NCBI RefSeq assembly: GCF_024700885.2
Contig: NZ_CP117016.1
DNA length: 64,000 nucleotides
From: Escherichia coli
GTDB lineage: Bacteria; Pseudomonadota; Gammaproteobacteria; Enterobacterales; Enterobacteriaceae
Direction: 5' to 3' (one strand)
Shown in pieces: positions 13,567 through 57,237 of the stretch. Under the pieces are notes generated by a model. The model worked only from the letters and a program-made list of their open reading frames with translations, had not been told where the DNA came from and ran no database searches. Position 1 is the stretch's first letter. Every line of letters begins with the position of its first letter. Position numbers and translations under genes: made by a program.

Positions 13567-14295
13567 ATGACGCAGACACTGAATCCGGTCATCACTGTCA
13601 CCGTGTCCGGTCCTGTGGGCAGCGGTAAAAGTTACGTACTGGCGCGAATAGAGGAAGTGGTGAAACAGGAATTCGGAAACAGCGTCATTGTCGACGCCGC
13701 AGACGTGGACGGTGAGCGCCGTATGAGTGGGGATGATCTGAGCACATGGCAGAAACCACGGGCTGGCACAGTGATCAGGCTGGAGGAATACACGGGACAG
13801 GGCCTGTTGTCATACGGCGAGGAGCGTATCTGTCGGACGAATGAGCTGCTGGATGTTATATGCCCCACGGGCCGGCAACCCTGGATACTGCCCGATGCAC
13901 TGCATGCCACCATTGCGGCACTGATGACAGTTTACGATCAGGAGCTGCTCATGAAGGAGTTACGTAAACTCACTGGTCAGTCAACAGAATGTTGTTCGTC
14001 CCCGAAGTACGGCAAACAGGAACACATCCCGATTAACCAGCCTCCCCGGTTCTTCGACGAATACCTTCTGACACCGGAAAATAAAGCTGAGCATGAAGAG
14101 ATCAAAGCGGCGTTGTTCCGGGAAATCAGGAAGATTGCTGAAATGCAACTGGAGGGCGGGCTGGACAGAGTGATGGCGAGAGGAGAATGGGCATCGCTGT
14201 TTGAAAGAGTTTCCCCGGAATTACTTCCCCTCGCACTGGCTATCGGGATTATGCAGACAGCGGATAAACCTCACTTACGTTCATTAAACACGTAA
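13567..14295 (+). CDS. P-loop kinase-like protein (Walker A GPVGSGKS followed by hhhDAAD, as in small-molecule/nucleotide kinases)
   Basis: GAGGAGA RBS 7 nt upstream; motif VTVSGPVGSGKSYV ... SVIVDAADVD; 242 aa. Confidence 0.6.
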   Translation: MTQTLNPVITVTVSGPVGSGKSYVLARIEEVVKQEFGNSVIVDAADVDGERRMSGDDLSTWQKPRAGTVIRLEEYTGQGLLSYGEERICRTNELLDVICPTGRQPWILPDALHATIAALMTVYDQELLMKELRKLTGQSTECCSSPKYGKQEHIPINQPPRFFDEYLLTPENKAEHEEIKAALFREIRKIAEMQLEGGLDRVMARGEWASLFERVSPELLPLALAIGIMQTADKPHLRSLNT

Positions 14296-14675
14296 CGCAT
14301 AATCCGGGATACGCATTCAGCGATGACTGCATTTTCACCGGTTTTTACTGCATCCAGAAGTGACTCTTTAAATGGTACGGGCCGGGGCTGCAGAAAGGTC
14401 GGCATGGCATTGAGCAGACAGAGCGTTTTTTCCGTGAGGACGACATCAGCCGCTCCCACAGCCAGCAACTGAGAGTAACGAATATAGCTGTTATCCCGAA
14501 GCCATATCAGCGTATCAATAAAACACCGGCACTTTTTCTGGTCGTGATCAACCTGGTCCGGGATATCGAAAAAACCAGAATAAATCAAAACCTGAGGTGC
14601 CGGATGCGTGTTCAGTAATCGGCAGAATATTTTGCCGGTGAGTACATAAAAATCATCATTTAAGGAGTGCATCAT
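14271..14675 (-). CDS. hypothetical 134-aa protein, convergent with and overlapping the 3' end of the kinase-like gene by 25 bp
   Basis: Only long ORF covering 14296-14673; E. coli-like codon usage by eye; no recognisable motif. Confidence 0.45.
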   Translation of the reverse strand: MMHSLNDDFYVLTGKIFCRLLNTHPAPQVLIYSGFFDIPDQVDHDQKKCRCFIDTLIWLRDNSYIRYSQLLAVGAADVVLTEKTLCLLNAMPTFLQPRPVPFKESLLDAVKTGENAVIAECVSRIMRYVFNERK

Positions 14676-14889
14676 GAATCCCCGATTAACGTTAACAGAA
14701 CATCAGCGCCGTGCTGAAGCAGTGAACAATGTTCTGGAAGATATTATCCGGTTATACCGCGGAGAACTGAGTGTCTGTCGTGCCGCTTTTCATTTTCAGG
14801 GAATACAAAAGCAGTTTGATACTTCTGTTTTTGCAGAAGGTATTACTTATGCCCTGGACCGGATAAGGTCAGAAAATCGCCCCGGATAA
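14674..14889 (+). CDS. hypothetical 71-aa protein
   Basis: AAGGAG 6 nt upstream of ATG; start codon overlaps the start codon of the 134-aa ORF on the opposite strand. Confidence 0.5.
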   Translation: MNPRLTLTEHQRRAEAVNNVLEDIIRLYRGELSVCRAAFHFQGIQKQFDTSVFAEGITYALDRIRSENRPG

Positions 14890-15079
14890 TCCCTAAACCA
14901 CATTAACAGAAATCCCGCCATCCCTGCCGCATCATGAAAGAACGACCAGCCCGGCACCCGAAAGCCGGGCTGGTCATCGCCCCACAGGAATGCGCTGTGA
15001 GCCGACCAAGGTTCAGTCAGTCTCGCGAGACCTGACCAGACTGCCATATTTTTTAATAATTGTAAAAGGCTTGCAGATT

Positions 15080-15844
15080 ATGAAAATGCAGACATTACCC
15101 ATCGTGCCGTGGATTGGTGGCAAACGCCGCCTTGCAAAACACATTCTGCCGCTGTTTCCGGCGCATGAATGTTATGTGGAGCCGTTTTGTGGGGCAGCAG
15201 CGCTCTATTTTCTTAAGACACCCGGCAAGATCGAAGTCATCAATGATATCAACGGTGAACTGGTGAATCTGTACCGGGTGGTAAAGCATCACCTGGAAGA
15301 ATTTGTCCGCCAGTTCAAATGGGCGCTGGTCAGCCGTCAGATCTACAAATGGCTGCAGATCACCCCGGAAGAAACACTGACGGATATCCAGCGTGCGGCA
15401 CGGTTCTACTACCTTCAGAAGCAGGCGTTTGGCGGCAAGGTGGCAGAGCACAGCTTCGGTACCTCCACCACATCCCCGCCACGCTTCAACCTGCTACGTA
15501 TTGAAGAAGAACTGTCAGCGGCACACCTGCGGCTTTCCAGAACAGTCATAGAACACATGGACTGGCAACAGTGCATTGAGCGTTATGATCGTCCGCACAC
15601 GCTGTTCTACTGCGACCCACCGTACCTGGGTACGGAAGGCTATGGTGTGGATTTTCCTGAAGGGAACTACTCGCGGCTGGCAGAGCTGGCCCGGTGCATC
15701 AGAGGAAAAATGATAATTTCGGTGAACGACATCCCGCAGATGCGCGAGGTGTTCACTGGACTGAACATACAGACAGTGAATATCAACTACAGTCTGGCGG
15801 GTAAACCCACGCCGCGCCGTGAACTGCTAATCTGCAACTTCTGA
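15080..15844 (+). CDS. DNA N6-adenine methyltransferase, Dam family (orphan)
   Basis: DPPY catalytic motif (FYCDPPYLG) and N-terminal PWIGGKRRL motif typical of Dam-family enzymes; no adjacent restriction endonuclease. Confidence 0.8.
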   Translation: MKMQTLPIVPWIGGKRRLAKHILPLFPAHECYVEPFCGAAALYFLKTPGKIEVINDINGELVNLYRVVKHHLEEFVRQFKWALVSRQIYKWLQITPEETLTDIQRAARFYYLQKQAFGGKVAEHSFGTSTTSPPRFNLLRIEEELSAAHLRLSRTVIEHMDWQQCIERYDRPHTLFYCDPPYLGTEGYGVDFPEGNYSRLAELARCIRGKMIISVNDIPQMREVFTGLNIQTVNINYSLAGKPTPRRELLICNF

Positions 15845-15874
15845 AACAAAACCGGAAAGCACAATGCTTTCCGG
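15844..15874 (-). terminator. putative rho-independent terminator downstream of the repressor gene
   Basis: 9-bp perfect stem CCGGAAAGC/GCTTTCCGG, followed on the minus strand by a T-rich tract. Confidence 0.4.
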
Positions 15875-15960
15875 TAAACCAAACAACTTCCACTATGTCA
15901 CTGGCGATGTTTTCTGAAAGCATCCAGATCAACCACCTGTCCTTTGTGTCCGGGTCAGTA

Positions 15961-16317
15961 TCAGCCTGCGATTTTTCCTGGTTTTGGCTGAGTATAGAAT
16001 CGCCCAATCTCAAGAAATGAGCGTTGTTGGTCTGGTGTCATGTCGTCAAAAGTATCTATTAGTTTTTGTTTTTCTGGGGAAATTTGATTCTGGTTTCTAG
16101 TCATACCATCTGTGCTCATTCCAGTGAGCAACCAATTTACATCAACATTAAACTCTTGATGCATCTTTAACAGAAACTCCCCTCCAGGCATCGCCTTTCC
16201 ATTTTCAATCTGACTGATACCACCATTAGAAATACCTAAACGAGCTGCAAATTCTCTCTGGTTCAACCCTGCTTTCTTCCTCACAGAAATAACGCGCTCT
16301 CCTATATCTTTGCTCAT
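15961..16317 (-). CDS. phage repressor, XRE-family HTH (Mu c analogue)
   Basis: HTH LNQREFAARLGISNGGISQIENGK; divergent from ner-like gene. Confidence 0.7.
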   Translation of the reverse strand: MSKDIGERVISVRKKAGLNQREFAARLGISNGGISQIENGKAMPGGEFLLKMHQEFNVDVNWLLTGMSTDGMTRNQNQISPEKQKLIDTFDDMTPDQQRSFLEIGRFYTQPKPGKIAG

Positions 16318-16340
16318 AAAAGTGAATCTCTATCTTGATA

Positions 16341-16358
16341 TGCTCATAATTATGAGCA
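16341..16358. promoter_or_regulatory. 18-bp perfect palindrome TGCTCATAATTATGAGCA in c/ner intergenic region (candidate operator)
   Basis: Seen directly; lies between divergent repressor and ner-like genes. Confidence 0.5.
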
Positions 16359-16410
16359 ATAATCTAACACATATAAGGCAAACATCATTGCATCAACAAA
16401 GGAGACAACG

Positions 16411-16599
16411 ATGACTGCAGAACAAGTCAAAGCTCTCTTCCGCCAGCGCGGGATCACTTTCACCCGCTGGGCAGAAGAAAACGGCTACAACCGCAATGAG
16501 GTATACCGCGTTCTCAACGGGCAGACCAAAGCCCGTTACGGTAAATCCCATGAAATCGCCGTGAAGTTGGGACTGAAATCAACAGCTCAGGCGGCCTAA
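16411..16599 (+). CDS. ner: Ner-like DNA-binding protein
   Basis: 62 aa, Ner/Nlp-like sequence; AAAGGAGA RBS; first gene of early operon. Confidence 0.7.
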   Translation: MTAEQVKALFRQRGITFTRWAEENGYNRNEVYRVLNGQTKARYGKSHEIAVKLGLKSTAQAA

Positions 16600-16645
16600 A
16601 TATTTTGAGTCTTTGTAAAAGGTTATCACATATCGCAAAAGAGGT

Positions 16646-16960
16646 ATGCAGATGAGTAAGACGAATGTTTCAAGCTCCGGCAGTCGCATCCTCCGGGTAC
16701 TCAAAGCGCTGCGCGGTCATGCCCTGAACGGTATTTCTAACGGTGAACTGGCGACAGCACTGCACGAGTCACCGGCAAACATCAACCGGGCACTCAACAC
16801 CCTCATTGAAGAAGGGCTGGCTCTGAAACTGGAGAACGGACGTTTTGCACCGGGCATCCAGTTACTGCAGATCGCCATGGCCCACAGTAACGAGATGGCA
16901 CGTGCACAGGATCGTATTAACGAAATTAACCAACGTGTCATTTCAGGTAGTCGTTTGTAA
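16646..16960 (+). CDS. winged-helix DNA-binding protein (hypothetical regulator)
   Basis: 104 aa; HTH-like segment ISNGELATALHESPANINRALNTLIEEGLA. Confidence 0.5.
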   Translation: MQMSKTNVSSSGSRILRVLKALRGHALNGISNGELATALHESPANINRALNTLIEEGLALKLENGRFAPGIQLLQIAMAHSNEMARAQDRINEINQRVISGSRL

Positions 16961-16970
16961 GGAGTAATCA

Positions 16971-17891
16971 ATGGGACGTACCAAATCACCGATTAACACT
17001 GAACTGAACGCCGATGTACCGCTGTCGGATGATCTCAACGTCAGCCTGAATGCCATGACACAGCATCGCATGGAGATCATGCAGCAGTTTGGTGATGGAC
17101 TGCCTTATGAACGTGAACGCATCGTTCACGAAGCACGTTTTTATATGGCGCAGAGTGCTGAATCTATGTTGGAAGCGGGTAAGCGGCTGATCATCTTAAA
17201 AGAAAATGAACCGCATGGTGATTTCACAAATATTCTGGAAAACGACCTCGGATTAGCACCACAGGTAGCTCGTCGCATGATGCAGGCCAGCGTGAAATTT
17301 CTCGGCAATGGAGATGAACAGCCAAAACGCTCAGCGCTGAGCGTTTTGGGAAAAACCAAGTTATATGAACTGATGGTTCTGGATGACGAAGAACTCGACG
17401 CATTAGCTGATGGTGGAACCGTCGCCGGTGCAACGCTTGATGATATTGATCGCATGACCAGCCGCGAACTGAAGGCCGCCCTGCGTGAAGCGCGCGAAAC
17501 CAACGCAGCTCAGCAACAGGTGCTTGCCGGAAAGGACGAAAAAATCAACGAACTGGCCACAAAACTGGAGAAGAAATCGCGCCTGCAACCTCCGCCGCCA
17601 GACGAAGAACTGAAAAAATTGCGGGCGGAAGTGACGGCATTAGCGGTTGAGGCCGAATCGGCTATCGCCGTCCGGCTGTCCAGTGTTTTTGAGACCCTGT
17701 GTGAATACTGCACCAAAAACATGATCGATACCCCCAGAGATTTCATGGCCGGTCTGGTCTGCCAGATTGAACGCAGTGTTCATGCATTACGTGAGACGTT
17801 TGACCTTGAGGCCGCTCCATCGGGTAACGATGCCCCCGCCTGGCTGACCGAACCGGAACCTGAAATCAACCGACCGGAGGATATGCAGTAA
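16971..17891 (+). CDS. hypothetical early protein, acidic with coiled-coil region
   Basis: 306-aa ORF, RBS-coupled in early operon. Confidence 0.5.
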   Translation: MGRTKSPINTELNADVPLSDDLNVSLNAMTQHRMEIMQQFGDGLPYERERIVHEARFYMAQSAESMLEAGKRLIILKENEPHGDFTNILENDLGLAPQVARRMMQASVKFLGNGDEQPKRSALSVLGKTKLYELMVLDDEELDALADGGTVAGATLDDIDRMTSRELKAALREARETNAAQQQVLAGKDEKINELATKLEKKSRLQPPPPDEELKKLRAEVTALAVEAESAIAVRLSSVFETLCEYCTKNMIDTPRDFMAGLVCQIERSVHALRETFDLEAAPSGNDAPAWLTEPEPEINRPEDMQ

Positions 17892-18208
17892 TGAATACGA
17901 ATAACACACAAAATACCCTGATGGACAGCCCGGAGGCACTGGGGCACGCACTGTGTAATCTGCTGCCGGAGATGGTGCAGGGTTTCCGCGTGGTGACCCC
18001 TTCCGGTGAAATCTGCGTACCCGCACAGGAGACGCACCCGTTTGTACTGACGATGGAGGTGATGCTGATGCAGCAGATAAGACGTCTGCAGAATCAGTCA
18101 GCATTACGCCCGGTAGTTGCACCGCAACCGGTAAATACCGTGGTGAAAACCTGCGATGGCGAAACACTGTGCGACCTCGCCAGAAAAATTGCCGCCAGAA
18201 TCGGATAA
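17891..18208 (+). CDS. hypothetical early protein
   Basis: 105 aa, ATGA stop/start overlap with upstream gene. Confidence 0.45.
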   Translation: MNTNNTQNTLMDSPEALGHALCNLLPEMVQGFRVVTPSGEICVPAQETHPFVLTMEVMLMQQIRRLQNQSALRPVVAPQPVNTVVKTCDGETLCDLARKIAARIG

Positions 18209-18223
18209 CAGGGAAGACAAGCT

Positions 18224-19993
18224 ATGACCCCGGCACTGACTGAAAAACTGGTTGAAACAGCCCGCGCGGCACGTGACGCGGGGCATGGTAAACGCGGTGC
18301 AATATACGACGCTGCCTGTGCTGAACTTGGCATGTCCCGCGCCACTCTGCTGCGCAGGCTGAAGGAGGTATCTGTGACTGATAAACGCAAAAAACGCGCC
18401 GATGCCGGGCGCAGCGCCCTGACCCGCGACGAAGCCGCGCTGATATCTGCCACACTGCGTGAGGCCACCCGCAAGAACGGTAAGCGTCTCTATTCCATCG
18501 CAGATGCAGTGGAAACCCTGCGGGCTAACGGCTTTATCACCGCAGGCAGAACAGATGAAACCACCAGTGAGTTTTTCCCGTTGTCTGAAGATGCCATCAG
18601 CCGTGCTCTGCGTAACTATGGCCTGCACCCGGAACAACTGGATGCCCCTGCACCACATACCGAAGTGGCCAGTCTGCATCCCAATCATGTCTGGCAGATT
18701 GACGCCTCACTCTGCACGCTTTACTACCTGAGCAATGGACATAAAGGGCTGCAGGTGATGGACAGCGCGAAGTTCTACAAGAACAAGCCCGCTAACCTTG
18801 CCCGTATCGCCAGTGACCGCGTGTGGAGTTACGAGATTACCGACCATGCCAGCGGCTGGATTTACGTTGAGTATGTGACGGGCGCGGAATCAGGTGAGAA
18901 CCTGTGTTCTGTGCTTATCAACGCCATGCAGGAGCGTGGCGGCGCAGACGTGCTGCACGGCGTGCCGAAAATACTCTATCTCGACCCCGGCTCGGCAAAC
19001 ACCGCGGGTATGACGAAAAACATGTGCCGCTCACTGGGCATCGACCTGATAGCGCACAAGCCGCATAACGCCCGCGCCACCGGACAGGTGGAAAAGGCGC
19101 GTGACATTATCGAACGCAAGCTGGAGCCGGGTCTGAAGTTCCGGCCGGTTCACAGTCTGGAAGAACTCAACGCGCTGGCCGCGAAATGGCGCAGCCACTT
19201 TAACGCCACGGCTGTTCACAGCCGCCACGGTAAAACCCGCACGGATATCTGGCTGAAGATTACTGCTGAGCAGCTGAAAAAAGCGCCTTCCGTTGAGGTA
19301 TGTCGTGAACTGGCTGTGGCGGCACCAGAACTCCGCAAAGTCACGCCAAAACTTCGTGTCTCGTTCCGGGGCACTGAATTTGACGTATCAACGGTACCGG
19401 GCGTACTGGTTGGTGAAAAACTGATGATTACCCGTAACCCATGGCGCAGCGATGTGGCACAGGTGGTTCTGACCGGTGAGGACGGCCACGAGACGTTCTT
19501 CCTGGTCGAAGAGGTCAGAAAGAACGAGTTTGGCTTTGCTGAAGGCGCGGCGGTATTTGGCGAAAGTTACAAAGCCCTGCCGGAAACCCCGGCACAGATG
19601 GCGGCAAAAGAAACCGAAGCGCTGGTTACCGGTACAGACAACGCCGCAGATGCAGCCGCCGCACGCAAGGCGAAGGCGCTGCCGTTCGGCGGGCGGCTTG
19701 ACCCGTATAAACATATCGACGACACCACACTTCCGGCCTATATGCCGAAGCGTGGTCAGGCCTCTGACGTACGCGGGCCGCGCACTGAACAACGTCCCAT
19801 GACTCATGTGGAGGCCGCGAAAGCCCTGCGCGATAAGTTCAGCGCCGACGGCCTTACCTGGACGCCGGAACATTACCGCCAGTTAACGGCACAGTACCCG
19901 GACGGCGTACCGGAAGCCGCACTGGATGAAGTCATGGCCACGCTGACCACACCGGCCCGCAGCAGTGTTATCAGCATTGTTAACGGCAACTGA
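18224..19993 (+). CDS. DDE transposase (Mu A analogue, integrase-core type)
   Basis: 589 aa; N-terminal HTH, WQIDAS and LYLDPGSANT DDE-type motifs; followed by ATPase partner. Confidence 0.8.
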   Translation: MTPALTEKLVETARAARDAGHGKRGAIYDAACAELGMSRATLLRRLKEVSVTDKRKKRADAGRSALTRDEAALISATLREATRKNGKRLYSIADAVETLRANGFITAGRTDETTSEFFPLSEDAISRALRNYGLHPEQLDAPAPHTEVASLHPNHVWQIDASLCTLYYLSNGHKGLQVMDSAKFYKNKPANLARIASDRVWSYEITDHASGWIYVEYVTGAESGENLCSVLINAMQERGGADVLHGVPKILYLDPGSANTAGMTKNMCRSLGIDLIAHKPHNARATGQVEKARDIIERKLEPGLKFRPVHSLEELNALAAKWRSHFNATAVHSRHGKTRTDIWLKITAEQLKKAPSVEVCRELAVAAPELRKVTPKLRVSFRGTEFDVSTVPGVLVGEKLMITRNPWRSDVAQVVLTGEDGHETFFLVEEVRKNEFGFAEGAAVFGESYKALPETPAQMAAKETEALVTGTDNAADAAAARKAKALPFGGRLDPYKHIDDTTLPAYMPKRGQASDVRGPRTEQRPMTHVEAAKALRDKFSADGLTWTPEHYRQLTAQYPDGVPEAALDEVMATLTTPARSSVISIVNGN

Positions 19994-20003
19994 GGAGGGA
20001 AAC

Positions 20004-21170
20004 ATGCTGGTACTGAAGCAGCAACTGAAAGAGGCCCGTATTCCACAGGCGGTGGTGGCGAGAGCTGTCGATGTTTCTGAGGCCACGCTGGCCCAGATTG
20101 TGAATCATAACGCGTGGCCCCGCACCAGCCCCGGAGAAGTGCGCCGGCGTCTTGCGTCCTGGCTGGAAAGTCAGGGGATTGATACAACGAAGAGTTTTGA
20201 TGCTGTACAGGGCGCGGCCACGCCCCGTACAGCGGGTACCACAGATAAAACGAGCCTCAGTGAGGAAGAGAATATGTTACTCAAAAAACAGGTGTTATTT
20301 CCAGCAACCAAAAAAGCGTTTGGTCTTTTCCGTGACCCGTTCGCCGACGAAGCCATGCAGGGTTCTGATGATGTGTTCACCACCCCGGATATTCGCTACG
20401 TGCGTGAGGCGTTGTACCAGACAGCCCGTCATGGTGGGTTTATGGCCGTCATCGGTGAGTCCGGTGCGGGTAAATCCACGCTGCGCCGCGACCTGACTGA
20501 ACGTATCAACCGCGAGAATGCGCCGGTAATTGTTATCGAGCCATACATCATCGCTATGGAAGACAACGATGTGAAAGGGAAAACCCTGAAGGCAGCAGCG
20601 ATTGCCGAAGCCATTATCAGTACCATCGCACCACTGGAAAGCATCAGACGCAGTCAGGACGCCCGCTTTCGCCAGTTGCATCGCGTCCTGAAAGACAGCA
20701 GCCAGGCGGGGTTCAGCCACGTTCTGGTGATTGAGGAGGCCCACAGTCTGCCCATTCCGACACTGAAACACCTCAAACGCTTTTTTGAGCTGGAGTCCGG
20801 TTTCAAAAAACTGCTGTCCATCGTGCTGATTGGCCAGCCGGAACTGGCGACAAAACTGTCTGAACGCAATATGGAAGTCCGTGAAGTCGTTCAGCGCTGT
20901 GAGGTGGTCGAACTTCTGCCTCTGGACAATAACCTTGAAGAGTTTCTGACGTTCAAACTGCAACGGGCCGGTAAACAACTGACGGACATTATGGACGCCA
21001 GCGCAGTGGATGCCATACGTGCCCGCCTGAGCAATCCGGGAAGTCATCGTAAAAATATGGTCAGCCTGCTGTATCCGCTGGCCGTCAGTAACCTGGTAAT
21101 AGCCGCCATGAATCTGGCCGCTGAAATCGGGGTTCCACAGGTCAACGCTGACGTTGTCAAAGGGGTTTAA
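20004..21170 (+). CDS. transposition ATPase (MuB-like, Walker A GESGAGKST); start set at ATG 20004
   Basis: GAGGAGG RBS before ATG 20004; N-terminal HTH-like segment plus P-loop. Confidence 0.7.
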   Translation: MLVLKQQLKEARIPQAVVARAVDVSEATLAQIVNHNAWPRTSPGEVRRRLASWLESQGIDTTKSFDAVQGAATPRTAGTTDKTSLSEEENMLLKKQVLFPATKKAFGLFRDPFADEAMQGSDDVFTTPDIRYVREALYQTARHGGFMAVIGESGAGKSTLRRDLTERINRENAPVIVIEPYIIAMEDNDVKGKTLKAAAIAEAIISTIAPLESIRRSQDARFRQLHRVLKDSSQAGFSHVLVIEEAHSLPIPTLKHLKRFFELESGFKKLLSIVLIGQPELATKLSERNMEVREVVQRCEVVELLPLDNNLEEFLTFKLQRAGKQLTDIMDASAVDAIRARLSNPGSHRKNMVSLLYPLAVSNLVIAAMNLAAEIGVPQVNADVVKGV

Positions 21171-25012: not shown

Positions 25013-25041
25013 TATCTGCAATCAGGCTGGCGCGAGTTCTG

Positions 25042-25098
<57 letters not shown>

Positions 25099-25099
25099 A

Positions 25100-25174
<75 letters not shown>

Positions 25175-44741: not shown

Positions 44742-45722
44742 TTACTTCGCGTTGTAATTACGCAGAGCGTTACGCCCCAACACAATCCCCGCGCCAACCA
44801 TGCCGCCCAGCAGCACTGCCAGAATCAAGGTAATTGCCTTTTTCGGACTATCGCGACGAATAGGTAACGTCGGTTTCATCACATAACGGTAAGCATGAAT
44901 ATCAAGATCATCAACCTTTAAGCTTTCGATATCCAGCAGGTTTTGACGAGTCTGATAGTAGTTTGGCGAGAACACCAACGGACGGGTCGCCTCGTGCTTA
45001 ATCATCGACTCCAGCGCTTCGCTCCCCAAAAGGAACAACGTATCTTGTGTGATATCTTCGCCAGTCTGTTGAATCTGCGGTTTTGTCACCTGCGCCTGAT
45101 TCGCATACTGCAACGCTTCCTGAATCTGACGGATACGCAGATCTTTCTGCTCCTGCGCGACTACTTCCTGCGTTCTTAAAGAGTCCTGCAAGTTTTTCCG
45201 TCCCAGAGCAATGTTGTCTTTGAGATCCTTTTCTAGCTCTTGATTCACTTTATCGTCAACTTGCTGAATGTATTGGGCCAACTTCATTTGTGCGCCCTCT
45301 GCAGTTTGCCCAACATAAGAAACAGTCAATGGTAATTGCTGGTTCTTAACAGAAGGTTCGATGGTAAGTTTTTCTCGTTCTTCCTGATTATCCAGCGTTT
45401 CTGCTAATGCAGAGAAGGCAGAACTGAAGCGACCAATTAACGTCTCCTGCAAATCCGATACTTTCGGTGCAGCCTGACCATAGATAACATTCATGGCATT
45501 GTTATAGCCAGCAATTTGCCCCACGTCGGGCTGAGTGATAATTGCTGTTGACGTCCATTTCTCCTTCGCTACTGCCAAATATCCAATAGCCAGGGCAATA
45601 GCCACAATGACGGAAATGATGATTGTCATCTTGCCACGCCACAACTGCACTAGTAAATCAATCAAATCAATCTGTTCCGGGTCATGGTTTTGCCCAGAAA
45701 CATTATTATTTTCTACTCTCAT
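44742..45722 (-). CDS. wzzB: O-antigen chain length determinant (Wzz/Cld)
   Basis: MRVENNNVSGQNHDPEQIDLIDLL recognised; TM helices at both ends. Confidence 0.85.
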   Translation of the reverse strand: MRVENNNVSGQNHDPEQIDLIDLLVQLWRGKMTIIISVIVAIALAIGYLAVAKEKWTSTAIITQPDVGQIAGYNNAMNVIYGQAAPKVSDLQETLIGRFSSAFSALAETLDNQEEREKLTIEPSVKNQQLPLTVSYVGQTAEGAQMKLAQYIQQVDDKVNQELEKDLKDNIALGRKNLQDSLRTQEVVAQEQKDLRIRQIQEALQYANQAQVTKPQIQQTGEDITQDTLFLLGSEALESMIKHEATRPLVFSPNYYQTRQNLLDIESLKVDDLDIHAYRYVMKPTLPIRRDSPKKAITLILAVLLGGMVGAGIVLGRNALRNYNAK

Positions 45723-45867
45723 CATTACCCTAACTGACGGAAATTTCCAAGTCCGCATAGTTTAGCGATAATCCTCGTGAATGCTATAGGATAAGTGATA
45801 AAAATAATGAATTGTTGTGTAAGTAACAAAAGACAATCAGGGCGTAAATAGCCCTGATAACAAGATG

Positions 45868-47043
<1,176 letters not shown>

Positions 47044-47282
47044 TCAGAATTAACTTAACTGTGAATCATGATGTTTTTAGCATCCTGATAAGAGCTAAAA
47101 GTTTTAACGCTACGTTGTTCGATGGTCAACGCAACGAAAAACAATTCAGATTTTCTTTATAAGAATAGCTGATATTTATTAAGTTAATATTAAGCAGTGA
47201 AATTTAGTCTATAAGATATTTGGCAAAAAAAAGCCCGGTGCAATATACGCCGGGCCTCAATTTTATTGTTGGTTAAATCAGA

Positions 47283-48689
47283 TTAATCCAGCCATTCGGT
47301 ATGGAACACACCTTCTTTATCAATACGCTTATAAGTATGCGCACCAAAATAGTCACGCTGTGCCTGGATCAGGTTCGCAGGCAGAACAGCAGCACGGTAG
47401 CTGTCGTAATAGGCAACCGCTGCGGAGAAGGTCGGAACCGGAATACCGTTCTGTACTGCATAAGCAACGACATCACGCAGCGCCTGCTGGTAGTCATCGG
47501 CAATTTGCTTGAAGTACGGAGCCAGCAGCAGGTTAGCGATCTGCGGATTTTCGGCATAAGCATCGGTGATTTTCTGCAGGAACTGCGCACGGATGATGCA
47601 GCCAGCACGGAAAATCTTCGCGATTTCGCCGTAGTTCAGATCCCAGTTGTACTCTTCAGACGCAGCACGCAGCTGAGAGAAGCCCTGGGCGTAAGAAACG
47701 ATTTTGCCCAGATACAGCGCACGACGAACTTTTTCGATGAACTCAGCCTTGTCGCCTGCTGGCTGTGCTTGCGGACCAGAGAGAACTTTAGATGCGGCAA
47801 CACGCTGATCTTTCAGAGAAGAGATATAACGTGCAAACACAGACTCGGTAATCAGCGACAGCGGTTCGCCGAGATCCAGCGCGCTCTGGCTGGTCCATTT
47901 ACCGGTACCTTTGTTAGCCGCTTCATCCAGGATCACATCAACCAGGTAGTTACCGTCTTCATCTTTTTTGGTGAAGATATCTTTGGTGATGTCGATCAGG
48001 TAACTGCTCAGTTCACCGTTATTCCACTCGGTAAAGGTCTGCGCCAGTTCTTCGTTGGTGAGGTTCAGGCCACCTTTAAGCAGAGAATAGGCTTCAGCAA
48101 TCAGTTGCATATCACCGTATTCGATACCGTTGTGAACCATCTTCACATAATGGCCTGCGCCATCGGCACCAATATAGGTAACGCATGGCTCCCCGTCTTC
48201 AGCTACTGCGGCGATTTTGGTCAGGATTGGTGCAACCAGTTCATAGGCTTCTTTCTGCCCACCAGGCATAATAGAAGGACCTTTCAGCGCGCCTTCTTCA
48301 CCACCGGAGACACCGGTACCAATGAAGTTAAAGCCTTCGGCAGAAAGTTCACGGTTACGACGAATGGTGTCCTGGAAGAAGGTATTGCCACCATCAATGA
48401 TGATGTCACCTTTATCGAGATATGGTTTGAGGGAATCAATAGCAGCATCCGTGCCTGCACCTGCTTTCACCATTAACAGGATGCGACGAGGCGTTTCCAG
48501 AGATTCAACAAACTCTTTCACCGTATAGTAAGGAACCAGTTTCTTGCCTGGATTTTCGGCAATCACTTCTTCCGTCTTTTCACGGGAACGGTTGAAAATA
48601 GAGACGGTATAACCACGGCTTTCGATGTTGAGCGCAAGGTTGCGCCCCATCACTGCCATACCGACTACGCCGATCTGTTGCTTTGACAT
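47283..48689 (-). CDS. gnd: 6-phosphogluconate dehydrogenase (decarboxylating)
   Basis: [21 protein letters not shown], 468 aa. Confidence 0.9.
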
Positions 48690-48806
48690 TGTTTACTCCT
48701 GTCAGGGGGTGGTCACCGCGCAAGATATGCGCAGCTTGAAATATGGTATGGATGTTAACTCAGGTTTAGCTTGGGTAGATAGCAGAAGATGTACTTTAGA
48801 CAAGCA

Positions 48807-49205
48807 TCACACGAACGATTTTGCAAAAGAAGGGTCAAATGGCCCCTCCTTAACTTCCACCATAAGAGCACGCGGAGATAGGCATTCGACACTGTGTATA
48901 TCGCCCGGAGAAAACTCCACAATGCTCATTCCAGTATTATCTCCTGCTATAAATTGCTTTATAACCTCACCATTTCTACCATACAAACAAACCTGAAGTT
49001 GCCCCTCCATAACAATGAACATTTCCCACTGATGAGGAAGTTCGTGATAATGCGGTTCAACATAGCTGCCCTTTACTAATGCAATAAGTAAACGCTGTAC
49101 CTTTTCTTGATGCGAGCCGTGCATCATAAGGTGGGAACGTAAACGTTCCGATTGCCCGGCTTGATCATATAATTCGTCGAGTTGGTCATTATCAATTAAT
49201 CGCAT
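48807..49205 (-). CDS. wbuC: WbuC-like cupin protein of L-FucNAc O-antigen clusters
   Basis: 132 aa, last gene before gnd, overlapping the upstream GT stop. Confidence 0.5.
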   Translation of the reverse strand: MRLIDNDQLDELYDQAGQSERLRSHLMMHGSHQEKVQRLLIALVKGSYVEPHYHELPHQWEMFIVMEGQLQVCLYGRNGEVIKQFIAGDNTGMSIVEFSPGDIHSVECLSPRALMVEVKEGPFDPSFAKSFV

Positions 49206-50406
49206 TGCATGCCTCCAACCTCATTTCTATCGTCTGTGCCGCAGACTCAACGGAGAATTGTTCTTTCAACAATATATTCGCCCCCGAACCAAGTTGCCGG
49301 CGCACATCAATATCATGCAACATTAATAGCGCAGATTGACATAATTTATCGTCCTCACCATTGACATGGATTAATCCCGCATTATTTTGATTGACAATGT
49401 CGAGCAAATCATTTCCGGCATTTACGCTACCTAAAATAGGTAGCGACTGAACCATATAGCCTAATAACTTACCAGGAAAATTATGGGAAGAGTGTCTAGC
49501 GGAAAGAGAAAACAAGCCGATATCCATTTCCGACAAAATGAACTTAAATTCATCTTGGTTAACCGAGGGCAAATAGGTGAAATTCGTCAATGCCCACTCA
49601 GATGCTAATGAATTAATTAATTCAACTTCATCCCCCTGGCCAATAAATAGGAAATGAGCTTGAGGATATGCTGCCATGTTTCTCACAAGTCGCATCAAGT
49701 TTGTCATGTCCTGTGCATGACCTATGTTTCCACCATAGAAGAAAATGGTTTTATCCTCTAGGCCAAGTCGCTTACGTAGTGGTATATAATCCTTGGGTAT
49801 GATCGTTGGTGTTAGGGATGCCCAATTACGCAAAACTTCGCACGGATAGCCTTTATTATCTTTCCGAAAAACATCAAGATTCTTATCAGACATAAGTCCA
49901 ATACGATTTGCCTGACGATAAGATATTTTTTCAAAAAGACGAAAGTAGCGTTCTATTGGGGAACCAGCATTAAGCATTCCTGCATCAATTACCCATTGTG
50001 GAAACATATCTCTTAAAATAAGATAAGCAGGACATTGGCAACGAGCTTTAATTTTTTTAACTAAAGGCCCCCAGAATATGGAAGGTGAATAATAAATCAC
50101 CCCCTCAAAGGTCTCTTTTTTTACCCATTTTTTGATGGCTTTCCACGCCCGATAGGACAAAAGCGTTTCATTGACCGCTCGCTGAATTTTACTTACATCC
50201 TTGAGCGGCCCGCTTTTAAAACGCCATGTTTTTACCCCCTGAAAGGTATCAAAAGAAATCTCTTCTTGCATGCCCGTACCAGGAGTAATTACCGTAACAT
50301 CGTGCCCACGCTGGATAAATTCTTGAGCAAGTTCATGAAACATTTTTGCACCAACACGAGTACTGTTGGGCAGGTAATCATCTATGATTAAAGCAAGTTT
50401 CATCAA
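49192..50406 (-). CDS. wbuB: glycosyltransferase family 4 (putative L-FucNAc transferase WbuB-like)
   Basis: 404 aa directly after fnlC. Confidence 0.65.
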   Translation of the reverse strand: MMKLALIIDDYLPNSTRVGAKMFHELAQEFIQRGHDVTVITPGTGMQEEISFDTFQGVKTWRFKSGPLKDVSKIQRAVNETLLSYRAWKAIKKWVKKETFEGVIYYSPSIFWGPLVKKIKARCQCPAYLILRDMFPQWVIDAGMLNAGSPIERYFRLFEKISYRQANRIGLMSDKNLDVFRKDNKGYPCEVLRNWASLTPTIIPKDYIPLRKRLGLEDKTIFFYGGNIGHAQDMTNLMRLVRNMAAYPQAHFLFIGQGDEVELINSLASEWALTNFTYLPSVNQDEFKFILSEMDIGLFSLSARHSSHNFPGKLLGYMVQSLPILGSVNAGNDLLDIVNQNNAGLIHVNGEDDKLCQSALLMLHDIDVRRQLGSGANILLKEQFSVESAAQTIEMRLEACNAIN

Positions 50407-51533
50407 TATTCTTTCCAGACGACTCTCTTAACATAATCTGTGTAAGAGTGAACAATTCTGACAACTTTATCCGACACATTTGGCATGCTGTAATCACTAA
50501 CCTGACGTAAAAGACGGACTTCACCTCGCGGTTGTGTTGCCAGAATATCCAGCGCTTGTAATACGCGTTCACACTCTAACCCCACCATCATGACGGATGC
50601 TTCCTCAAAGCCTTCCGGACGCTCATGCGCTTCCCGGATGTTTACCGCTGGGAAATTCATGATGGATGACTCTTCAGTGATAGTACCGCTATCTGAAAGC
50701 ACAGCTCGTGAGTTCTTCTGCAAGTGGTTATAATCATGGAAACCCAATGGTTTCAGTAGATTTATATTTGAATGAAATTCAATTCCTTGCTCACGGATTC
50801 GGTTACGTGTCCTTGGGTGTGTGGAGACAATAACTGGAAGATTATATTTTTCAGCAACAGTATTTAGAATGTTCGCAAGCTTTACGAGCTGTTTTGGAGA
50901 ATCAACATTCTCTTCACGATGCGCACTTACTACAAAAAACTCACCAGACTGTAGATTCAAACGCGATAGCACATCTGAACCATCAATTTGGGGCATATAA
51001 TATGAAAGAACCTCAAACATAGGGCTACCAGTTTTTATGATCCGATCAGCTGGGATACCTTCAGCCAAGAGATATTCACGAGCAATATCACTGTAGGTCA
51101 TATTGATATCAGCCGTATGGTCAACAATACGTCTGTTGGTTTCTTCAGGCACGCGTTGATCGAAACAACGGTTACCTGCTTCCATATGAAATATAGGCAC
51201 TTTACGGCGTTTGGCCGGAATGGCAGAAATACATGAATTCGTATCGCCCAATACCAGTATTGCTTCAGGTTTTTCGATTTCTAATACTTCATCTACCTTA
51301 ATAATAACCTGACCAATGGTTTCCGCCGCATTTTTACCCGCTGCATTTAAAAAATAATCAGGTTTTCGAACACCCAAGTCATTGAAGAACACTTCATTTA
51401 ATTCGTAATCATAATTTTGACCAGTATGGACAATAATATGCTCGCAGTATTCATCAAACTTAGCAAGAACCCTCGACAAACGGATAATCTCAGGACGGGT
51501 TCCAACAACAGACATAACTTTTAATTTTTTCAT
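50403..51533 (-). CDS. fnlC: UDP-N-acetylglucosamine 2-epimerase (FnlC)
   Basis: 376 aa non-hydrolysing 2-epimerase signature. Confidence 0.8.
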   Translation of the reverse strand: MKKLKVMSVVGTRPEIIRLSRVLAKFDEYCEHIIVHTGQNYDYELNEVFFNDLGVRKPDYFLNAAGKNAAETIGQVIIKVDEVLEIEKPEAILVLGDTNSCISAIPAKRRKVPIFHMEAGNRCFDQRVPEETNRRIVDHTADINMTYSDIAREYLLAEGIPADRIIKTGSPMFEVLSYYMPQIDGSDVLSRLNLQSGEFFVVSAHREENVDSPKQLVKLANILNTVAEKYNLPVIVSTHPRTRNRIREQGIEFHSNINLLKPLGFHDYNHLQKNSRAVLSDSGTITEESSIMNFPAVNIREAHERPEGFEEASVMMVGLECERVLQALDILATQPRGEVRLLRQVSDYSMPNVSDKVVRIVHSYTDYVKRVVWKEY

Positions 51534-52636
51534 TATAGAGGTCTCGCAATAGTATCGGGCTCATCACGGTTGAAAATTTCATTTGCCCAGAGCATGACTA
51601 TTAATTCATCAGTTCCAATATTTGTAATGTCATGTGTCCAACCAGGAACTGTTTCAACAATCTTAAACTCACCCGATGAAACTTTCAGTTCATATCGCTC
51701 ACCGGTAATCACATGTTCAAATTTAAAGCATGCCTGACCTCGAATGACCAAAAACTTCTCATTTTTACTGTGATGGTAATGTCCGCCACGCGTAATACCA
51801 GGGTGAGCAGTAAAAAATGAAAACTGCCCCGCTGAAGGCGTTTTCAACATCTCACAAAAGACTCCGCGGGCATCCCCATAAAAAGGTACCTTGTACGCAA
51901 ACTTCTCTGCTGGTAAATAACTCAGCCATGTAGAATACAATGCACGGGTAAATCCCGCCCCGACAGCCTCTGTGATCAGGGTGGAACGGCTATTTTTGAA
52001 GCTATAAATTAATTCTGCAACTTCACCAACTGTTGTTGAATAAATTGGTGCAACAACTTTATATCCACTTTCAACCGTCCCAGAGAGAAGAGCTATAGCA
52101 TCAGTACAAACATCATCAATATAGACCAGATTGACTGGCGCTGCTGCATCATTGATAGTAATCTCAATATCATTGGAAATATTGTAGCAAAAAGTTGCTA
52201 TAAAAGAATTATAGTTTGGCTTACACCATTTACCAAAAACGTTTGGATATCTGAAAATATAATACGAAGAACCACTAGCAGCAGCATATTTTTCGACATA
52301 GCTTTCAGCTACAGCTTTGCTAACCCCATAAGCATTATTAAGTTCAGCTTGTATCGAAGAACTTAGCATAATTGGTGTATTCTTACCAATAGAAAGGAGA
52401 TACTCAACTATATGCTTTGTTAAATCACTGTTTCCAGAAATAAACTCATCATCAGTCTTAGGTCTATTGATACCAGCTAAGTGATAAATAAAATCGGCAT
52501 CCTGTAAGCCTTGTTCAAGATCTTGCTTCGTTGATTCTCGATCAATTCTAATAAGATCTTTATAACCAAGTTCCTCAAGCCTCAAACATAAATTACGACC
52601 AATAAAACCATTTGCACCAGTAACTAATATTTTCAT
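51533..52636 (-). CDS. fnlB: FnlB-like reductase/epimerase (Cap5F-like)
   Basis: MKILVTGANGFIG Rossmann start; track ORF trimmed. Confidence 0.75.
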   Translation of the reverse strand: MKILVTGANGFIGRNLCLRLEELGYKDLIRIDRESTKQDLEQGLQDADFIYHLAGINRPKTDDEFISGNSDLTKHIVEYLLSIGKNTPIMLSSSIQAELNNAYGVSKAVAESYVEKYAAASGSSYYIFRYPNVFGKWCKPNYNSFIATFCYNISNDIEITINDAAAPVNLVYIDDVCTDAIALLSGTVESGYKVVAPIYSTTVGEVAELIYSFKNSRSTLITEAVGAGFTRALYSTWLSYLPAEKFAYKVPFYGDARGVFCEMLKTPSAGQFSFFTAHPGITRGGHYHHSKNEKFLVIRGQACFKFEHVITGERYELKVSSGEFKIVETVPGWTHDITNIGTDELIVMLWANEIFNRDEPDTIARPL

Positions 52637-52637
52637 A

Positions 52638-53672
52638 TCATGAATCCAGATTATATTTTTCACCAGCACGAATTGCTCGAATAAAGGCTAATTTTAGCAA
52701 GAGCTCTTTCATGCCTTCAACATCTAACCGTTGAGTATTATGAGAGTTATAATCTTCTATTTCAGATATTCGGCTATCACCTTGCTCAACATATTTGCCA
52801 TAATTAAGGTCACGAAGATCTGGCGGGACACGGTAATAATCGCCCATATCTATAGCAGCGATCATTTCCTCACGACTAAGTAGAGCTTCATATAATTTCT
52901 CGCCATGACGCGTTCCAATGACATTTACCGGATGGTCAGGAACATTTAGTAATTCCTTTAAAGCAATAGCTAATGTGTCAATAGTTGCTGCAGGTGCTTT
53001 TTGCACAAAGATATCACCATTATTACCATGTTCAAACGCATAAAGAACTAAATCTACCGCATCCTCAAGAGTCATCATAAAGCGGGTCATATTAGGATCA
53101 GTTATTGTGAGTGGCTTGCCCGCTCTAATAAGATCAACAAATAATGGAATAACTGAACCGCGAGATGCCATAACATTCCCATAACGGGTACCACATATTA
53201 CTGTTTTATTGCGATCAACATTACGGGATTTCGCGACCATGACCTTTTCCATCATAGCTTTTGAAATACCCATTGCGTTAATCGGGTATACAGCTTTATC
53301 AGTACTTAGGCATACAACCCTCTTCACTTCATTCGCTATAGCTGCTTCAAGAACATTTTCCGTACCAAGGATATTAGTTTTAACGGCTTCCATAGGATGA
53401 AATTCACATGATGGAACTTGCTTAAGTGCCGCTGCATGATATATAAAATCAACACCGCGAGTCGCATTCAAAATACTACGGTAATCTCTGACATCACCAA
53501 TATAGAACTTTAATTTTTGATTATTGTATTTTTTCCGCATATCATCTTGTTTTTTTTCATCACGACTAAATATACGGATTTCTGCAATATCTGTATCAAG
53601 AAATCTATTTAATACAGCATTCCCGAAAGAGCCAGTACCACCAGTAATTAACAGTGTTTTAGATGAAAACAT
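52638..53672 (-). CDS. fnlA: UDP-GlcNAc 4,6-dehydratase/5-epimerase (FnlA/CapE-like)
   Basis: TGGTGSFG motif, 344 aa. Confidence 0.85.
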   Translation of the reverse strand: MFSSKTLLITGGTGSFGNAVLNRFLDTDIAEIRIFSRDEKKQDDMRKKYNNQKLKFYIGDVRDYRSILNATRGVDFIYHAAALKQVPSCEFHPMEAVKTNILGTENVLEAAIANEVKRVVCLSTDKAVYPINAMGISKAMMEKVMVAKSRNVDRNKTVICGTRYGNVMASRGSVIPLFVDLIRAGKPLTITDPNMTRFMMTLEDAVDLVLYAFEHGNNGDIFVQKAPAATIDTLAIALKELLNVPDHPVNVIGTRHGEKLYEALLSREEMIAAIDMGDYYRVPPDLRDLNYGKYVEQGDSRISEIEDYNSHNTQRLDVEGMKELLLKLAFIRAIRAGEKYNLDS

Positions 53673-53713
53673 AATAACCGAACCTCAAATCATTGACAAA
53701 TATACTCTGGAAG

Positions 53714-54892
53714 CTATTTACTTACTTGACCTAACTTATTAGTAATTGAACTCTGTCCACTAAGTGTTACTCTATTCAAAAACATATATATAAAAGATAG
53801 AAAGAAATAGCCGTTAGATCCTAAAACTAAACCTTTGGTATTGAAAATTATCCCAATTAACATCCATATAATTGCTTGATATGTCATTCCAAATGTCGCA
53901 ATAGAAATAGTAAAGATTAAAAATAAAAAGAGTGTAATAAATGTTAACCCACCGTAATTAAACAGTATAACCCAGCCCATATCCGAACTTTGTTTAATAT
54001 CGGGGATTGATGAAGATATGTTTTGCTGTAATCCAAATATAATATTAAAAAAATCTAAATTACCTACAACAAACACATGTTGCTGTAATAAGATATCCAG
54101 AGTTCTTGTGCCATCTCCAGAAACGAACTCATCATAAAATCGAGGAAAGAACACTGCTCCTAAGCTATAAACTAAAACTCCCAAAATCAATACTGTTGCA
54201 ATTTTTATATTAATATTAAGTCTAGAGCAACCGATACCAATAATGGCTGCAATCACAGCCATGTTAGAATTTACGATTTGAGTCAGACAAATTAAAGTAA
54301 TTAAAGCATAACGCCTTTTCATCATAAAAAATGACATATAGATCATCAAAAATGGTGTCATGAAATTTATTTCACCCGACAACCCAAATCCTCTTACTTT
54401 AGCATTTTGTTCCCAAAGATTAACAGAGTCAGACATACCAAAGAAAGTATATAACAATCTTTTTAACTCTGGACTTATATACATACCAAAAAAAATAACT
54501 ATTTGAACCCAGAGAGAATACACTAATATTCGCTCCATTAATTTCAAGTCACCCTTTATGAATCTATTTACTAAATAATACGCAGGAACAAATGAAAATA
54601 AAAACAACATAAATAATCTAACGGTAAAATAACTTTGAAAAGAATGGCTTTTTTGAAACAAATCGAAAACCAAACAAAATAAAAAAATAATTATGAATAT
54701 AGATAACAGCAACAAATTTTTACGATCTATAGATACCAATCCATTGCCCATAGTAATCATAAAATTACGCACTAAATACATAATACCAAAAAATGCAGGA
54801 ATAAATGCCAAATATAAGAAAGGTATTATCAGCGACAATCTAAAAAAAACAACAAAAAATAATAAAAAAGCCATCAATGCATTATACTTCAT
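53714..54892 (-). CDS. wzy: O-antigen polymerase (Wzy-like)
   Basis: 392 aa polytopic membrane protein, very AT-rich gene. Confidence 0.55.
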   Translation of the reverse strand: MKYNALMAFLLFFVVFFRLSLIIPFLYLAFIPAFFGIMYLVRNFMITMGNGLVSIDRKNLLLLSIFIIIFLFCLVFDLFQKSHSFQSYFTVRLFMLFLFSFVPAYYLVNRFIKGDLKLMERILVYSLWVQIVIFFGMYISPELKRLLYTFFGMSDSVNLWEQNAKVRGFGLSGEINFMTPFLMIYMSFFMMKRRYALITLICLTQIVNSNMAVIAAIIGIGCSRLNINIKIATVLILGVLVYSLGAVFFPRFYDEFVSGDGTRTLDILLQQHVFVVGNLDFFNIIFGLQQNISSSIPDIKQSSDMGWVILFNYGGLTFITLFLFLIFTISIATFGMTYQAIIWMLIGIIFNTKGLVLGSNGYFFLSFIYMFLNRVTLSGQSSITNKLGQVSK

Positions 54893-54941
54893 TGTTTTTT
54901 ACCTTCCATACAAATGTCTTAATAAATGAAGATAGCATCAT

Positions 54942-57169: not shown

Positions 57170-57237
57170 TGAAGTGCCCCATATACAACAGATATCATTC
57201 GAGTAACTTATTCACATGAATCAATAAGTTGTTTATT

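Follow-up and report, generated by a model that had tools for sequence, protein, structure and literature searches.

A transposable prophage of the BcepMu/B3 type lies within a 64 000-nucleotide stretch of Escherichia coli DNA (contig NZ_CP117016.1, assembly GCF_024700885.2; referred to here as the window), and one of its early genes appears to encode both a DNA-binding protein and the site that this protein recognizes. The gene is found upstream of the transposase gene tnpA, at positions 16971–17891 on the plus strand, and its product of 306 amino acids (aa) belongs to the Pfam family DUF3102. Judged from sequence, and with a probability of about 0.7, the product is a sequence-specific helix-turn-helix (HTH) protein that binds, as a dimer, a 24–30-bp palindrome located ~50 nt downstream of its own recognition-helix codons. 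The gene arrangement and the type of phage are already known from BcepMu, B3 and their relatives; what is new is the co-varying palindrome within the gene and the inferred activity of DUF3102. Neither the palindrome nor an activity for this clade of DUF3102 proteins was found in the part of the literature that was searched, and an earlier mention elsewhere is conceivable.

The proposed dimer site in the E. coli prophage is a perfect palindrome of 28 bp at 17322–17349, spanning codons 118–127 of the DUF3102 gene. It was identified by a repeat scan as two arms of 14 nt with no spacer, CCAAAACGCTCAGC followed directly by GCTGAGCGTTTTGG. This is the only perfect palindrome with arms of at least 10 nt in the window, and no second copy or half-site above chance was detected, either across the window or over all 37.1 kb of the prophage. 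Palindromes are present at the same codons in B3 ORF13 (26 bp), BcepMu gp10 (30 bp), phiE255 gp41 (26 bp), and phiSHP3 (18 bp). A survey of 134 unique DUF3102 genes, drawn from three IMG/VR scans, identified arms of at least 10 nt with at most one mismatch in 109 genes and perfect palindromes with arms of at least 12 nt in 75, while control windows of these genes, 1146 in all, yielded perfect arms of 8 at most. These palindromes comprise some 70 distinct 26-mers, with a consensus of CAAA[A/T]-N5-A[G/A]C·G[C/T]T-N5-[T/A]TTTG, in which the dot marks the centre. Across 95 distinct sites, mirrored cells are complementary in 94.5% of cases, compared with 69% after shuffling and 35–41% with a slid partner. 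Cells in which both bases have changed number 296, a value reached by 0 of 500 shuffles, and changes on both sides are seen at 10 of the 13 mirrored positions. Among plasmid and phage-plasmid DUF3102 genes, no palindrome was seen at the equivalent codons. A 20-bp palindrome upstream of the gene in a Citrobacter plasmid has the look of a terminator, and was left out of the evidence.

Both the recognition helix and the palindrome fall within a hypervariable recombination cassette, which covers codons 81–140 of the gene (17211–17390, plus strand) and was defined from nucleotide distances and distance-matrix correlations. In enterobacterial phages, a winged helix-turn-helix (wHTH) protein encoded upstream is 89–99% identical and the transposase TnpA is 88–99% identical, whereas DUF3102 is only 71–84% identical. 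The differences are concentrated in residues 81–140, and among near-identical phages variation is confined to these codons. The 180-nt block has a mean nucleotide distance of 0.38, against ~0.2 in its flanks, and on each side of it the distance-matrix correlation drops from 0.98 to ~0.1 within 150 nt. Distances in the cassette are uncorrelated with those in the region of the repressor and Ner-like genes, and with those in tnpA. Within the protein, the variable residues occupy the first and central parts of the recognition helix, with versions that include APQVARR, AYRTSVR, HVRAAQR, SKRTAQV, and EPRIAQK. Between BcepMu gp10 and phiE255 gp41, the C-terminal halves are near-identical and the N-terminal halves, including the HTH and the palindrome, are very different; on sequence comparison the two genes read as a clear intragenic mosaic, which supports exchange of the cassette.

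Assignment of the 306-aa protein to DUF3102 (PF11300) comes from a match of 27.0 bits across residues 65–173, where the gathering cut-off is 24.4. A full-length match to PHROG 1748 (E = 9.6e-144) accompanies it, and 127 of 139 aligned relatives also match PF11300. An earlier note on this stretch of DNA had left the protein without a family, which no longer applies; its description as an acidic coiled-coil protein agrees with an isoelectric point (pI) of 4.74 and with the long helices predicted at residues 164–205, 210–249, and 256–276. The AlphaFold (AF2) model has a predicted local distance difference test (pLDDT) score of 90, and consists of an all-alpha N-terminal domain that contains the HTH, an antiparallel coiled coil, and an acidic tail. 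The tail is conserved, with P289 and W291 invariant in an alignment of four phages. The predicted HTH occupies codons 84–111 (17220–17303, plus strand): AF2 secondary structure and a classic HTH sequence pattern, with allele-specific residues at 98, 99, 101, and 102, place the first helix at 84–92, a turn LGLA with Gly94, and the recognition helix at 97–111. Its relatives form 3352 clusters at 50% identity. Searches of solved structures gave no significant relative, with Foldseek hits to the DNA-binding domains of KorB and Spo0J at E-values of 7–8 that are non-significant and serve as a lead only. No ParBc match was obtained at E ≤ 0.1, and PADLOC profiles of anti-phage defence matched only marginally (E-values of 2.5e-5 to 6e-3), on HTH or coiled-coil stretches. 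Two longer relatives, of 482 and 532 aa, are extended at the N-terminus by sequence in which no Pfam domain was recognized. DUF3102 is named in only three papers of the searchable literature, with no functional account in any of them. Shorter proteins with a DUF3102 domain are encoded by IncF phage-plasmids and a Lactiplantibacillus plasmid. One DUF3102 gene outside transposable phages heads an operon before a Mor-family activator and tail genes, and another adjoins a gene with a primase domain.

Several observations point to DUF3102 as the protein that reads the site. Among phages with different palindrome cores, the wHTH protein, TnpA, the ATPase TnpB, and the phage ends are conserved, and the DUF3102 recognition helix, encoded in the same cassette as the palindrome and upstream of it, is the only variable DNA-binding surface nearby. 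Mutual information between protein and DNA peaks for residue 101, at canonical HTH position 16, and base 7 of the half-site counted from the centre (1.55 bits, z = 41). The next pairs link residue 101 with bases 8 and 9, and after them come the residue/base pairs 98/6, 102/4, and 99/5; residues 98, 99, and 102 lie at HTH positions that usually contact bases. A base rule can be stated in simple terms: Gln at residue 101 accompanies GCG (30 of 35 cases), Arg accompanies CG[G/C/T] (23 of 23), and Ala, Val, or Ser accompanies T at base 7 (all cases). Arg with G, and Ala or Val with T, are familiar recognition pairs. The BcepMu-type and B3/enteric-type subfamilies, between which most other residues differ, each obey the rule on their own, as does phiSHP3. 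Allele-specific binding of DUF3102 to the phage ends was considered and rejected, since the right-end sequence is essentially identical across different HTH and palindrome alleles.

The neighbours of the DUF3102 gene were analysed in a sample of 141 non-redundant IMG/VR contexts. The wHTH gene is upstream in 135 of 135 contexts, and no more than 120 nt away in 129 of them; tnpA is downstream in 134 of 134, with a gap of at most 150 nt in 108. The annotated order in BcepMu, phiE255, and B3 is a Ner-like gene, (a CII-like gene), a ‘transcriptional regulator’ of ~100 aa, (the small gp11), a DUF3102 protein of ~305 aa, the transposase, and TnpB. Equivalents of the pair are gp12/gp10 in BcepMu, ORF14/ORF13 in B3, and gp42/gp41 in phiE255, and in KS10 a DUF3102-like gene is followed by the transposase. 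The pair of wHTH and DUF3102 genes is a core feature of the BcepMu/B3-type group and its normal arrangement. The third gene, orf105 (17891–18208, plus strand; 105 aa, PHROG 5446), is located at the junction of the DUF3102 gene and tnpA. It is an accessory gene in a variable slot, because it occurs in only 11 of the 141 contexts, is lacking in a sister prophage of E. coli, where the DUF3102 gene abuts tnpA, and is replaced at the same junction elsewhere by unrelated open reading frames (ORFs) of 99 aa (PHROG 6925) and 73 aa. A database of 5.8 billion proteins contains 11 clusters of orf105, all from E. coli or Salmonella and with one phage record, and the gene is absent from all other genera. 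It has no match in Pfam, NCBIfam, PADLOC, or the PDB, and its AF2 model (pLDDT 57) is unusable for a structure search.

The earlier note had presented three genes between a ner gene and the transposase as additions to the layout of Mu, in which no genes lie between ner and A, and had suggested that they may be additional regulators of the lysis–lysogeny switch or transposition cofactors. The ORF listing confirms their coordinates and plus-strand orientation, at 16646–16960, 16971–17891, and 17891–18208 (104, 306, and 105 aa). They are not a unit, as the pair is invariant and orf105 is not, and the pair is ‘extra’ only by comparison with Mu. A role as regulators or cofactors fits with two predicted DNA-binding proteins and the invariant linkage to tnpA; no link was found specifically to the switch between lysis and lysogeny. 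The first ORF opens at 16646 as described, but the gene most likely starts at 16652 and encodes 102 aa, judging from the RefSeq call, the homologue alignments that begin there, and a GAGG sequence 7 nt upstream. Similarly, the gene called ner is Ner-like by position, with no demonstrated Ner function, and the comparison with Mu is positional only. Its 62-aa HTH product (16411–16599, plus strand) scores 97.4 bits against TIGR04111, the BcepMu_gp16 family, for which the threshold is 34, and matches PHROG 925 (E = 4e-33), whereas its score of 17.9 bits against HTH_35, the Mu Ner family, is below the cut-off of 25. The three ORFs, on sequence criteria, are genuine genes and not chance ORFs, because each is preceded by a Shine–Dalgarno sequence, their ratios of non-synonymous to synonymous substitution (dN/dS) are low, and they match PHROG profiles. 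Against diverged E. coli copies, dN/dS is 0.03–0.07 for the wHTH gene, 0.10–0.22 for the DUF3102 gene, and 0.30 for orf105 (from 16 substitutions only), and the profile matches have E-values of 5e-45, 1e-143, and 1e-73, respectively. The DUF3102 gene and orf105 overlap in the sequence TAATG.

A mechanism can be proposed in which the recognition helix and its site would form one exchangeable cassette of 180 nt, inherited together as many matched alleles; the sharp recombination borders would arise because helix and site travel as one. A single protein–site complex would always be positioned 0.55–0.9 kb upstream of tnpA, and its coiled coil and conserved acidic tail may contact TnpA, TnpB, or the wHTH protein. 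Such a complex could supply in trans the enhancer-binding domain that is present in the Mu transposase and lacking in TnpA. The alignment of TnpA to PHROG 310 starts at profile position 130 of 696 and the rve core begins at residue 152, which leaves room for end-binding domains only. No Mu-type N-terminal winged-helix enhancer-binding domain was identified on TnpA, and an enhancer-binding domain is missing in B3-like TnpA (PMC8705779). Private specificity of each pair might prevent the machinery of one prophage from replicating related co-resident prophages that share its ends, and we propose that alleles diversified because this blocks mutual exploitation. Two pairs of prophages resident in one genome were available, and both have different alleles, although these are too few to weigh. 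The suggestion that the DUF3102–site complex serves transpososome assembly or replication as an enhancer-like, allele-specific accessory site in cis is a tentative one, to which we would give somewhat less than an even chance. It is favoured because the linkage to tnpA is invariant, the transposase lacks the domain, Mu and D108 display allele specificity, and co-resident prophages have identical ends. For both Mu and D108, the A protein has an N-terminus that co-varies with its operator/enhancer; in Mu, the transpositional enhancer (the internal activation sequence, IAS, or operators O1–O2) is bound by domain I-alpha of MuA.

Various points count against binding of the palindrome by DUF3102 or against the enhancer-like role. 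The DUF3102 protein is acidic, its HTH region included, and DUF3102 domains are also found in non-transposing phage-plasmids and in Lactobacillus plasmids, so that the fold is not specific to transposition. Two members encoded directly upstream of tnpA, PM105_13 and KS10 gp15, are without the palindrome, so that some members evidently manage without the site; the N-terminal half of PM105_13 is BcepMu-type. Evidence for the enhancer-like role is drawn only from analogy and gene position. Bases 8-7-6 of the half-site make up codon 120, so the covariation of residue 101 with base 7, the middle base of the codon, is equally a covariation of residue 101 with residue 120. Template switching at quasipalindromes could help to keep the palindrome perfect, adding symmetry without selection. 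Finally, the element can be drawn as RNA with a 12-bp stem and a 4-nt loop (−19 kcal/mol, z = −3.4), flanked by A4 and U4. This stable predicted fold raises an alternative in which the palindrome is a structural element that needs no allele-specific protein, either as an RNA hairpin (an intragenic attenuator or processing site) or as a DNA cruciform, with a stem that varies freely provided that it stays paired. Variability of the HTH would then be unrelated, or would result from coevolution within the protein with residues encoded by the stem. Compensatory changes are expected of a stem, and a variable, GC-rich stem with conserved A- and T-tracts around it resembles bidirectional intrinsic terminators. 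We nevertheless consider this alternative improbable. Symmetry at the level of DNA is favoured because the position that would be the hairpin loop is complementary, an outer C:G pair is kept, GT mismatches are few, and the T-tract is short. Of the 95 sites, 94 are complementary at the second position out from the centre, with three main pair types (A:T 38, G:C 35, T:A 20), the outermost C:G pair beyond the T-tract is kept in 79 of 95, and mismatches in the inner stem are non-GT in 24 cases and GT in 9, so wobble is not preferentially tolerated. The T-tract has 4 nt, or 3 in many alleles, and a scan for intrinsic terminators (a GC-rich hairpin followed by at least 5 T in 8 nt) was silent; a terminator at codon 127 would moreover cut short the mRNA of a conserved gene. 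At that second position, enteric alleles combine a non-synonymous change of GCG to ACG (Ala to Thr) in one arm with a synonymous change of CTG to TTG in the other. Covariation of residues 101 and 120 within the protein would not explain the dyad symmetry, and a structural element leaves unexplained the almost deterministic match between residue 101 and the base in two subfamilies.

A further explanation accepts the pairing of DUF3102 with the palindrome and differs in its purpose. Transcription regulators classically take the form of an HTH protein paired with a dyad site, and a protein bound to the in-gene palindrome might act as an autoregulatory roadblock, stopping RNA polymerase ~960 nt past the early promoter in a Ner-like negative feedback. 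This would cap expression of the distal early genes, namely the 3′ part of the DUF3102 gene, tnpA, tnpB, gam, and those beyond. The presence of a single site per genome, in a transcribed early operon and upstream of tnpA, is in keeping with such a role; transposase expression is generally kept low, and the phage-plasmid gene that heads an operon before a Mor-family activator suggests a regulatory fold. However, a repressed prophage expresses no DUF3102, so that with a roadblock it is hard to see why many matched alleles should have diverged so deeply. The sites of regulators are normally found at promoters, and there is no promoter-like sequence near the palindrome; the invariant linkage to tnpA and the conserved coiled coil and acidic tail are also left unexplained. 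On balance this purpose, the main rival of the enhancer-like role, seems possible, if doubtful. It is very unlikely that the three genes together serve as additional regulators of the lysis–lysogeny switch. Two of the three are predicted to bind DNA, they lie just downstream of the repressor and Ner-like region, and a CII-like activator gene is present in the same stretch of B3 and BcepMu. Yet the three do not co-occur, and the invariant partner is tnpA, not the repressor. Co-variation of the DUF3102 cassette with the immunity region, as for an antirepressor, was examined in a Mantel-type scan of ±5 kb and rejected, with rho ~0 across the repressor and Ner-like genes. The same type of repressor occurs with different DUF3102 alleles, which reassort independently of it and of the Ner-like gene.

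Comparison with better-known systems highlights both similarities and differences. BcepMu, B3, and phiE255 have, like the E. coli prophage, an orthologous pair in the same order before tnpA and tnpB, with the palindrome at the same codons; the E. coli lineage adds orf105, and is without the CII-like gene (BcepMu gp13, B3 ORF15) and gp11. No function or site is described for the genes of these pairs in the searchable literature. The Mu enhancer offers an analogy: in this transposable phage too, an allele-specific, co-varying DNA-binding module reads an element that lies in cis, a few hundred bp ahead of the transposase gene. In contrast with Mu, DUF3102 is a separate protein of unrelated fold, and its site is one dyad inside an ORF rather than an operator cluster shared with the repressor. 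ParB/Spo0J with parS, and KorB with OB, also combine a multi-helical HTH protein with a palindrome, of ~13–16 bp or more, and in plasmid and phage ParB systems protein and site alike have specificity variants. One parS of Bacillus subtilis lies inside the spo0J coding sequence. The KorB DNA-binding domain has a weak Foldseek resemblance to DUF3102 (template modelling score of 0.47 on the target, E-value of 7.6), which is not significant. Unlike ParB and KorB, DUF3102 lacks an N-terminal/CTPase domain, has a single site, and has no ParA partner, and an integrating element has no need of partition. Phage immunity cassettes likewise contain matched, diverged alleles of recognition helix and dyad site that are exchanged as blocks with sharp borders. 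They differ in that the DUF3102 cassette is separate from the repressor and Ner-like region and that its proposed site is embedded in the gene for the binding protein itself.

The partner of DUF3102 in the conserved pair is a basic winged-helix protein (16652–16960, plus strand; pI 10.7) with an HTH of the MarR/IclR type, equivalent to BcepMu gp12 and B3 ORF14 and extremely conserved. It matches PHROG 1368, HTH_IclR (26 bits, cut-off 22), and HTH_24 (23.4 bits, cut-off 21.9), and in profile comparison with the PDB it matches MarR (E = 3.5e-6) and IclR (E = 7.5e-4). Neither an IclR effector domain nor a full MarR dimerisation scaffold was found in its 102 aa, with no match outside residues 14–71; by sequence it is a stand-alone wHTH protein and no member of the IclR family. 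Identity to the BcepMu, B3, and phiE255 counterparts is 33–56%, comparable figures for DUF3102 being 38–56%. A target site for the wHTH protein was not found.

The early operon runs outward toward Mor and the right end of the prophage, in the order Ner-like, wHTH, DUF3102, orf105, tnpA, tnpB. Divergent from it is a cI-type HTH_3 repressor of 118 aa (15961–16317, minus strand; Pfam HTH_3 E = 4.6e-15; PHROG 8/4, transcriptional repressor). The sole sigma-70-like site in 15800–18400 is a candidate early promoter, TTGATA-17-AATAAT (16335–16363, plus strand), which overlaps an operator-like palindrome of 18 bp, TGCTCATAATTATGAGCA, at 16341–16358 (inverted repeats I3/I5, direct repeat D2). The motif TGCTCA-N6-TGAGCA is present in two copies, one here and one inside the repressor gene at 16113–16130, which probably serve as operators for either the cI-like repressor or the Ner-like protein. 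Downstream, TnpA is a Tn552/B3-type DDE transposase of 589 aa (18224–19993, plus strand; rve 35.8 bits), and TnpB is an AAA+ (ExeA-like) transposition ATPase (20004–21170, plus strand; AAA_22 E = 4e-20; PHROG 296 E = 1.5e-93), named in RefSeq as an ‘ExeA family protein’.

An rve DDE TnpA, an AAA+ TnpB, genes for Mor and GemA, and two arms separated by regulatory genes identify the element, at the level of sequence, as a BcepMu/B3-type transposable prophage with a Tn552-related transposase, and not as a relative of Mu with extra genes. Sequence identity of the region to Escherichia phage PhiKM (genus Bcepmuvirus) is 99.7%, and many E. coli chromosomes carry prophages that match it at 100%. Matches to the prophage stretch were found in 643 of 5426 complete E. 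coli genomes (~12%), with up to three such prophages per genome. Its termini are 5′-TGATGCGCCGCGCGATAAATGCAC...GTGCGATAAATGG on the left, which lies outside the window, and ...CATTTATCTCAAGTCTAATCA-3′ on the right (25013–25174, plus strand, with ATCTCA-type repeats), where comparison of two insertion sites gives 25174 as the last base. The terminal letters are 5′-TGATGCG... and ...TCTAATCA-3′, and in strain 4/1-1 the prophage copy is bordered by a 6-bp target duplication, GAAGAA. At the insertion in the window (otsB/araH), the flanking hexamers CCATTT and GTGAAC differ, which suggests rearrangement or deletion at one end of the prophage.

Other features of the prophage and its surroundings can be recorded. 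A motif, TTTTCACATACTGTAAGGTTATTGCA, ~100–135 nt inside the right end (window ~25040–25075) and just past the Mor terminator, is kept even in distant relatives despite different surrounding sequence, and might be a site for a host factor or the wHTH protein. Between the lysis genes and the repressor, a variable accessory region (13567–15844) contains an ORF for a P-loop-like protein of 242 aa, small ORFs, and a DNA adenine methylase gene (15080–15844); this region, with its Dam methylase, has a weak correlation (rho ~0.3) with the DUF3102 allele. In E. coli Ec-U4 (NZ_CM192147.1), an otherwise identical early region is split by ISEcp1 with blaCTX-M-15, giving two match pieces over 8.6 kb. The left-end part of the prophage, which the window does not include, has a gene for a Gin-like serine recombinase beside oppositely oriented genes for a tail fibre and its assembly, an arrangement that, by analogy with Mu, suggests an invertible host-range segment. 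The part of the window at 45000–62000 has low G + C content (down to 0.29 at 54–55 kb) and a strongly negative GC skew, unlike the remainder, and is probably a horizontally acquired island.

The wider significance of these observations lies with the B3/BcepMu-type phages, which are common and have relatives in Salmonella, Klebsiella, Pseudomonas, and Burkholderia. Models of their transposition have followed that of Mu, whose enhancer-binding domain they lack, and a conserved predicted DNA-binding protein with a putative cognate site beside tnpA is a candidate for the missing control element. Sequence-specific binding to a dyad in DNA can, by inference, be assigned to one phage clade of the DUF3102 family, with a simple rule from residue to base that is readily checked. 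A recognition helix and its putative binding site would be contained within 180 nt of one ORF, evolving as an exchangeable cassette, and such matched, orthogonal pairs of protein and site could serve as parts in synthetic biology. A more speculative idea, and one that we regard as rather unlikely, is that DUF3102 and the in-gene palindrome may together make up a self-contained, allele-specific ‘enhancer plus enhancer-binding subunit’, acting as a device for kin discrimination in B3/BcepMu-type replicative transposition. If this were true, each phage would replicate only genomes that carry its own site, despite the identical ends of co-resident prophages.

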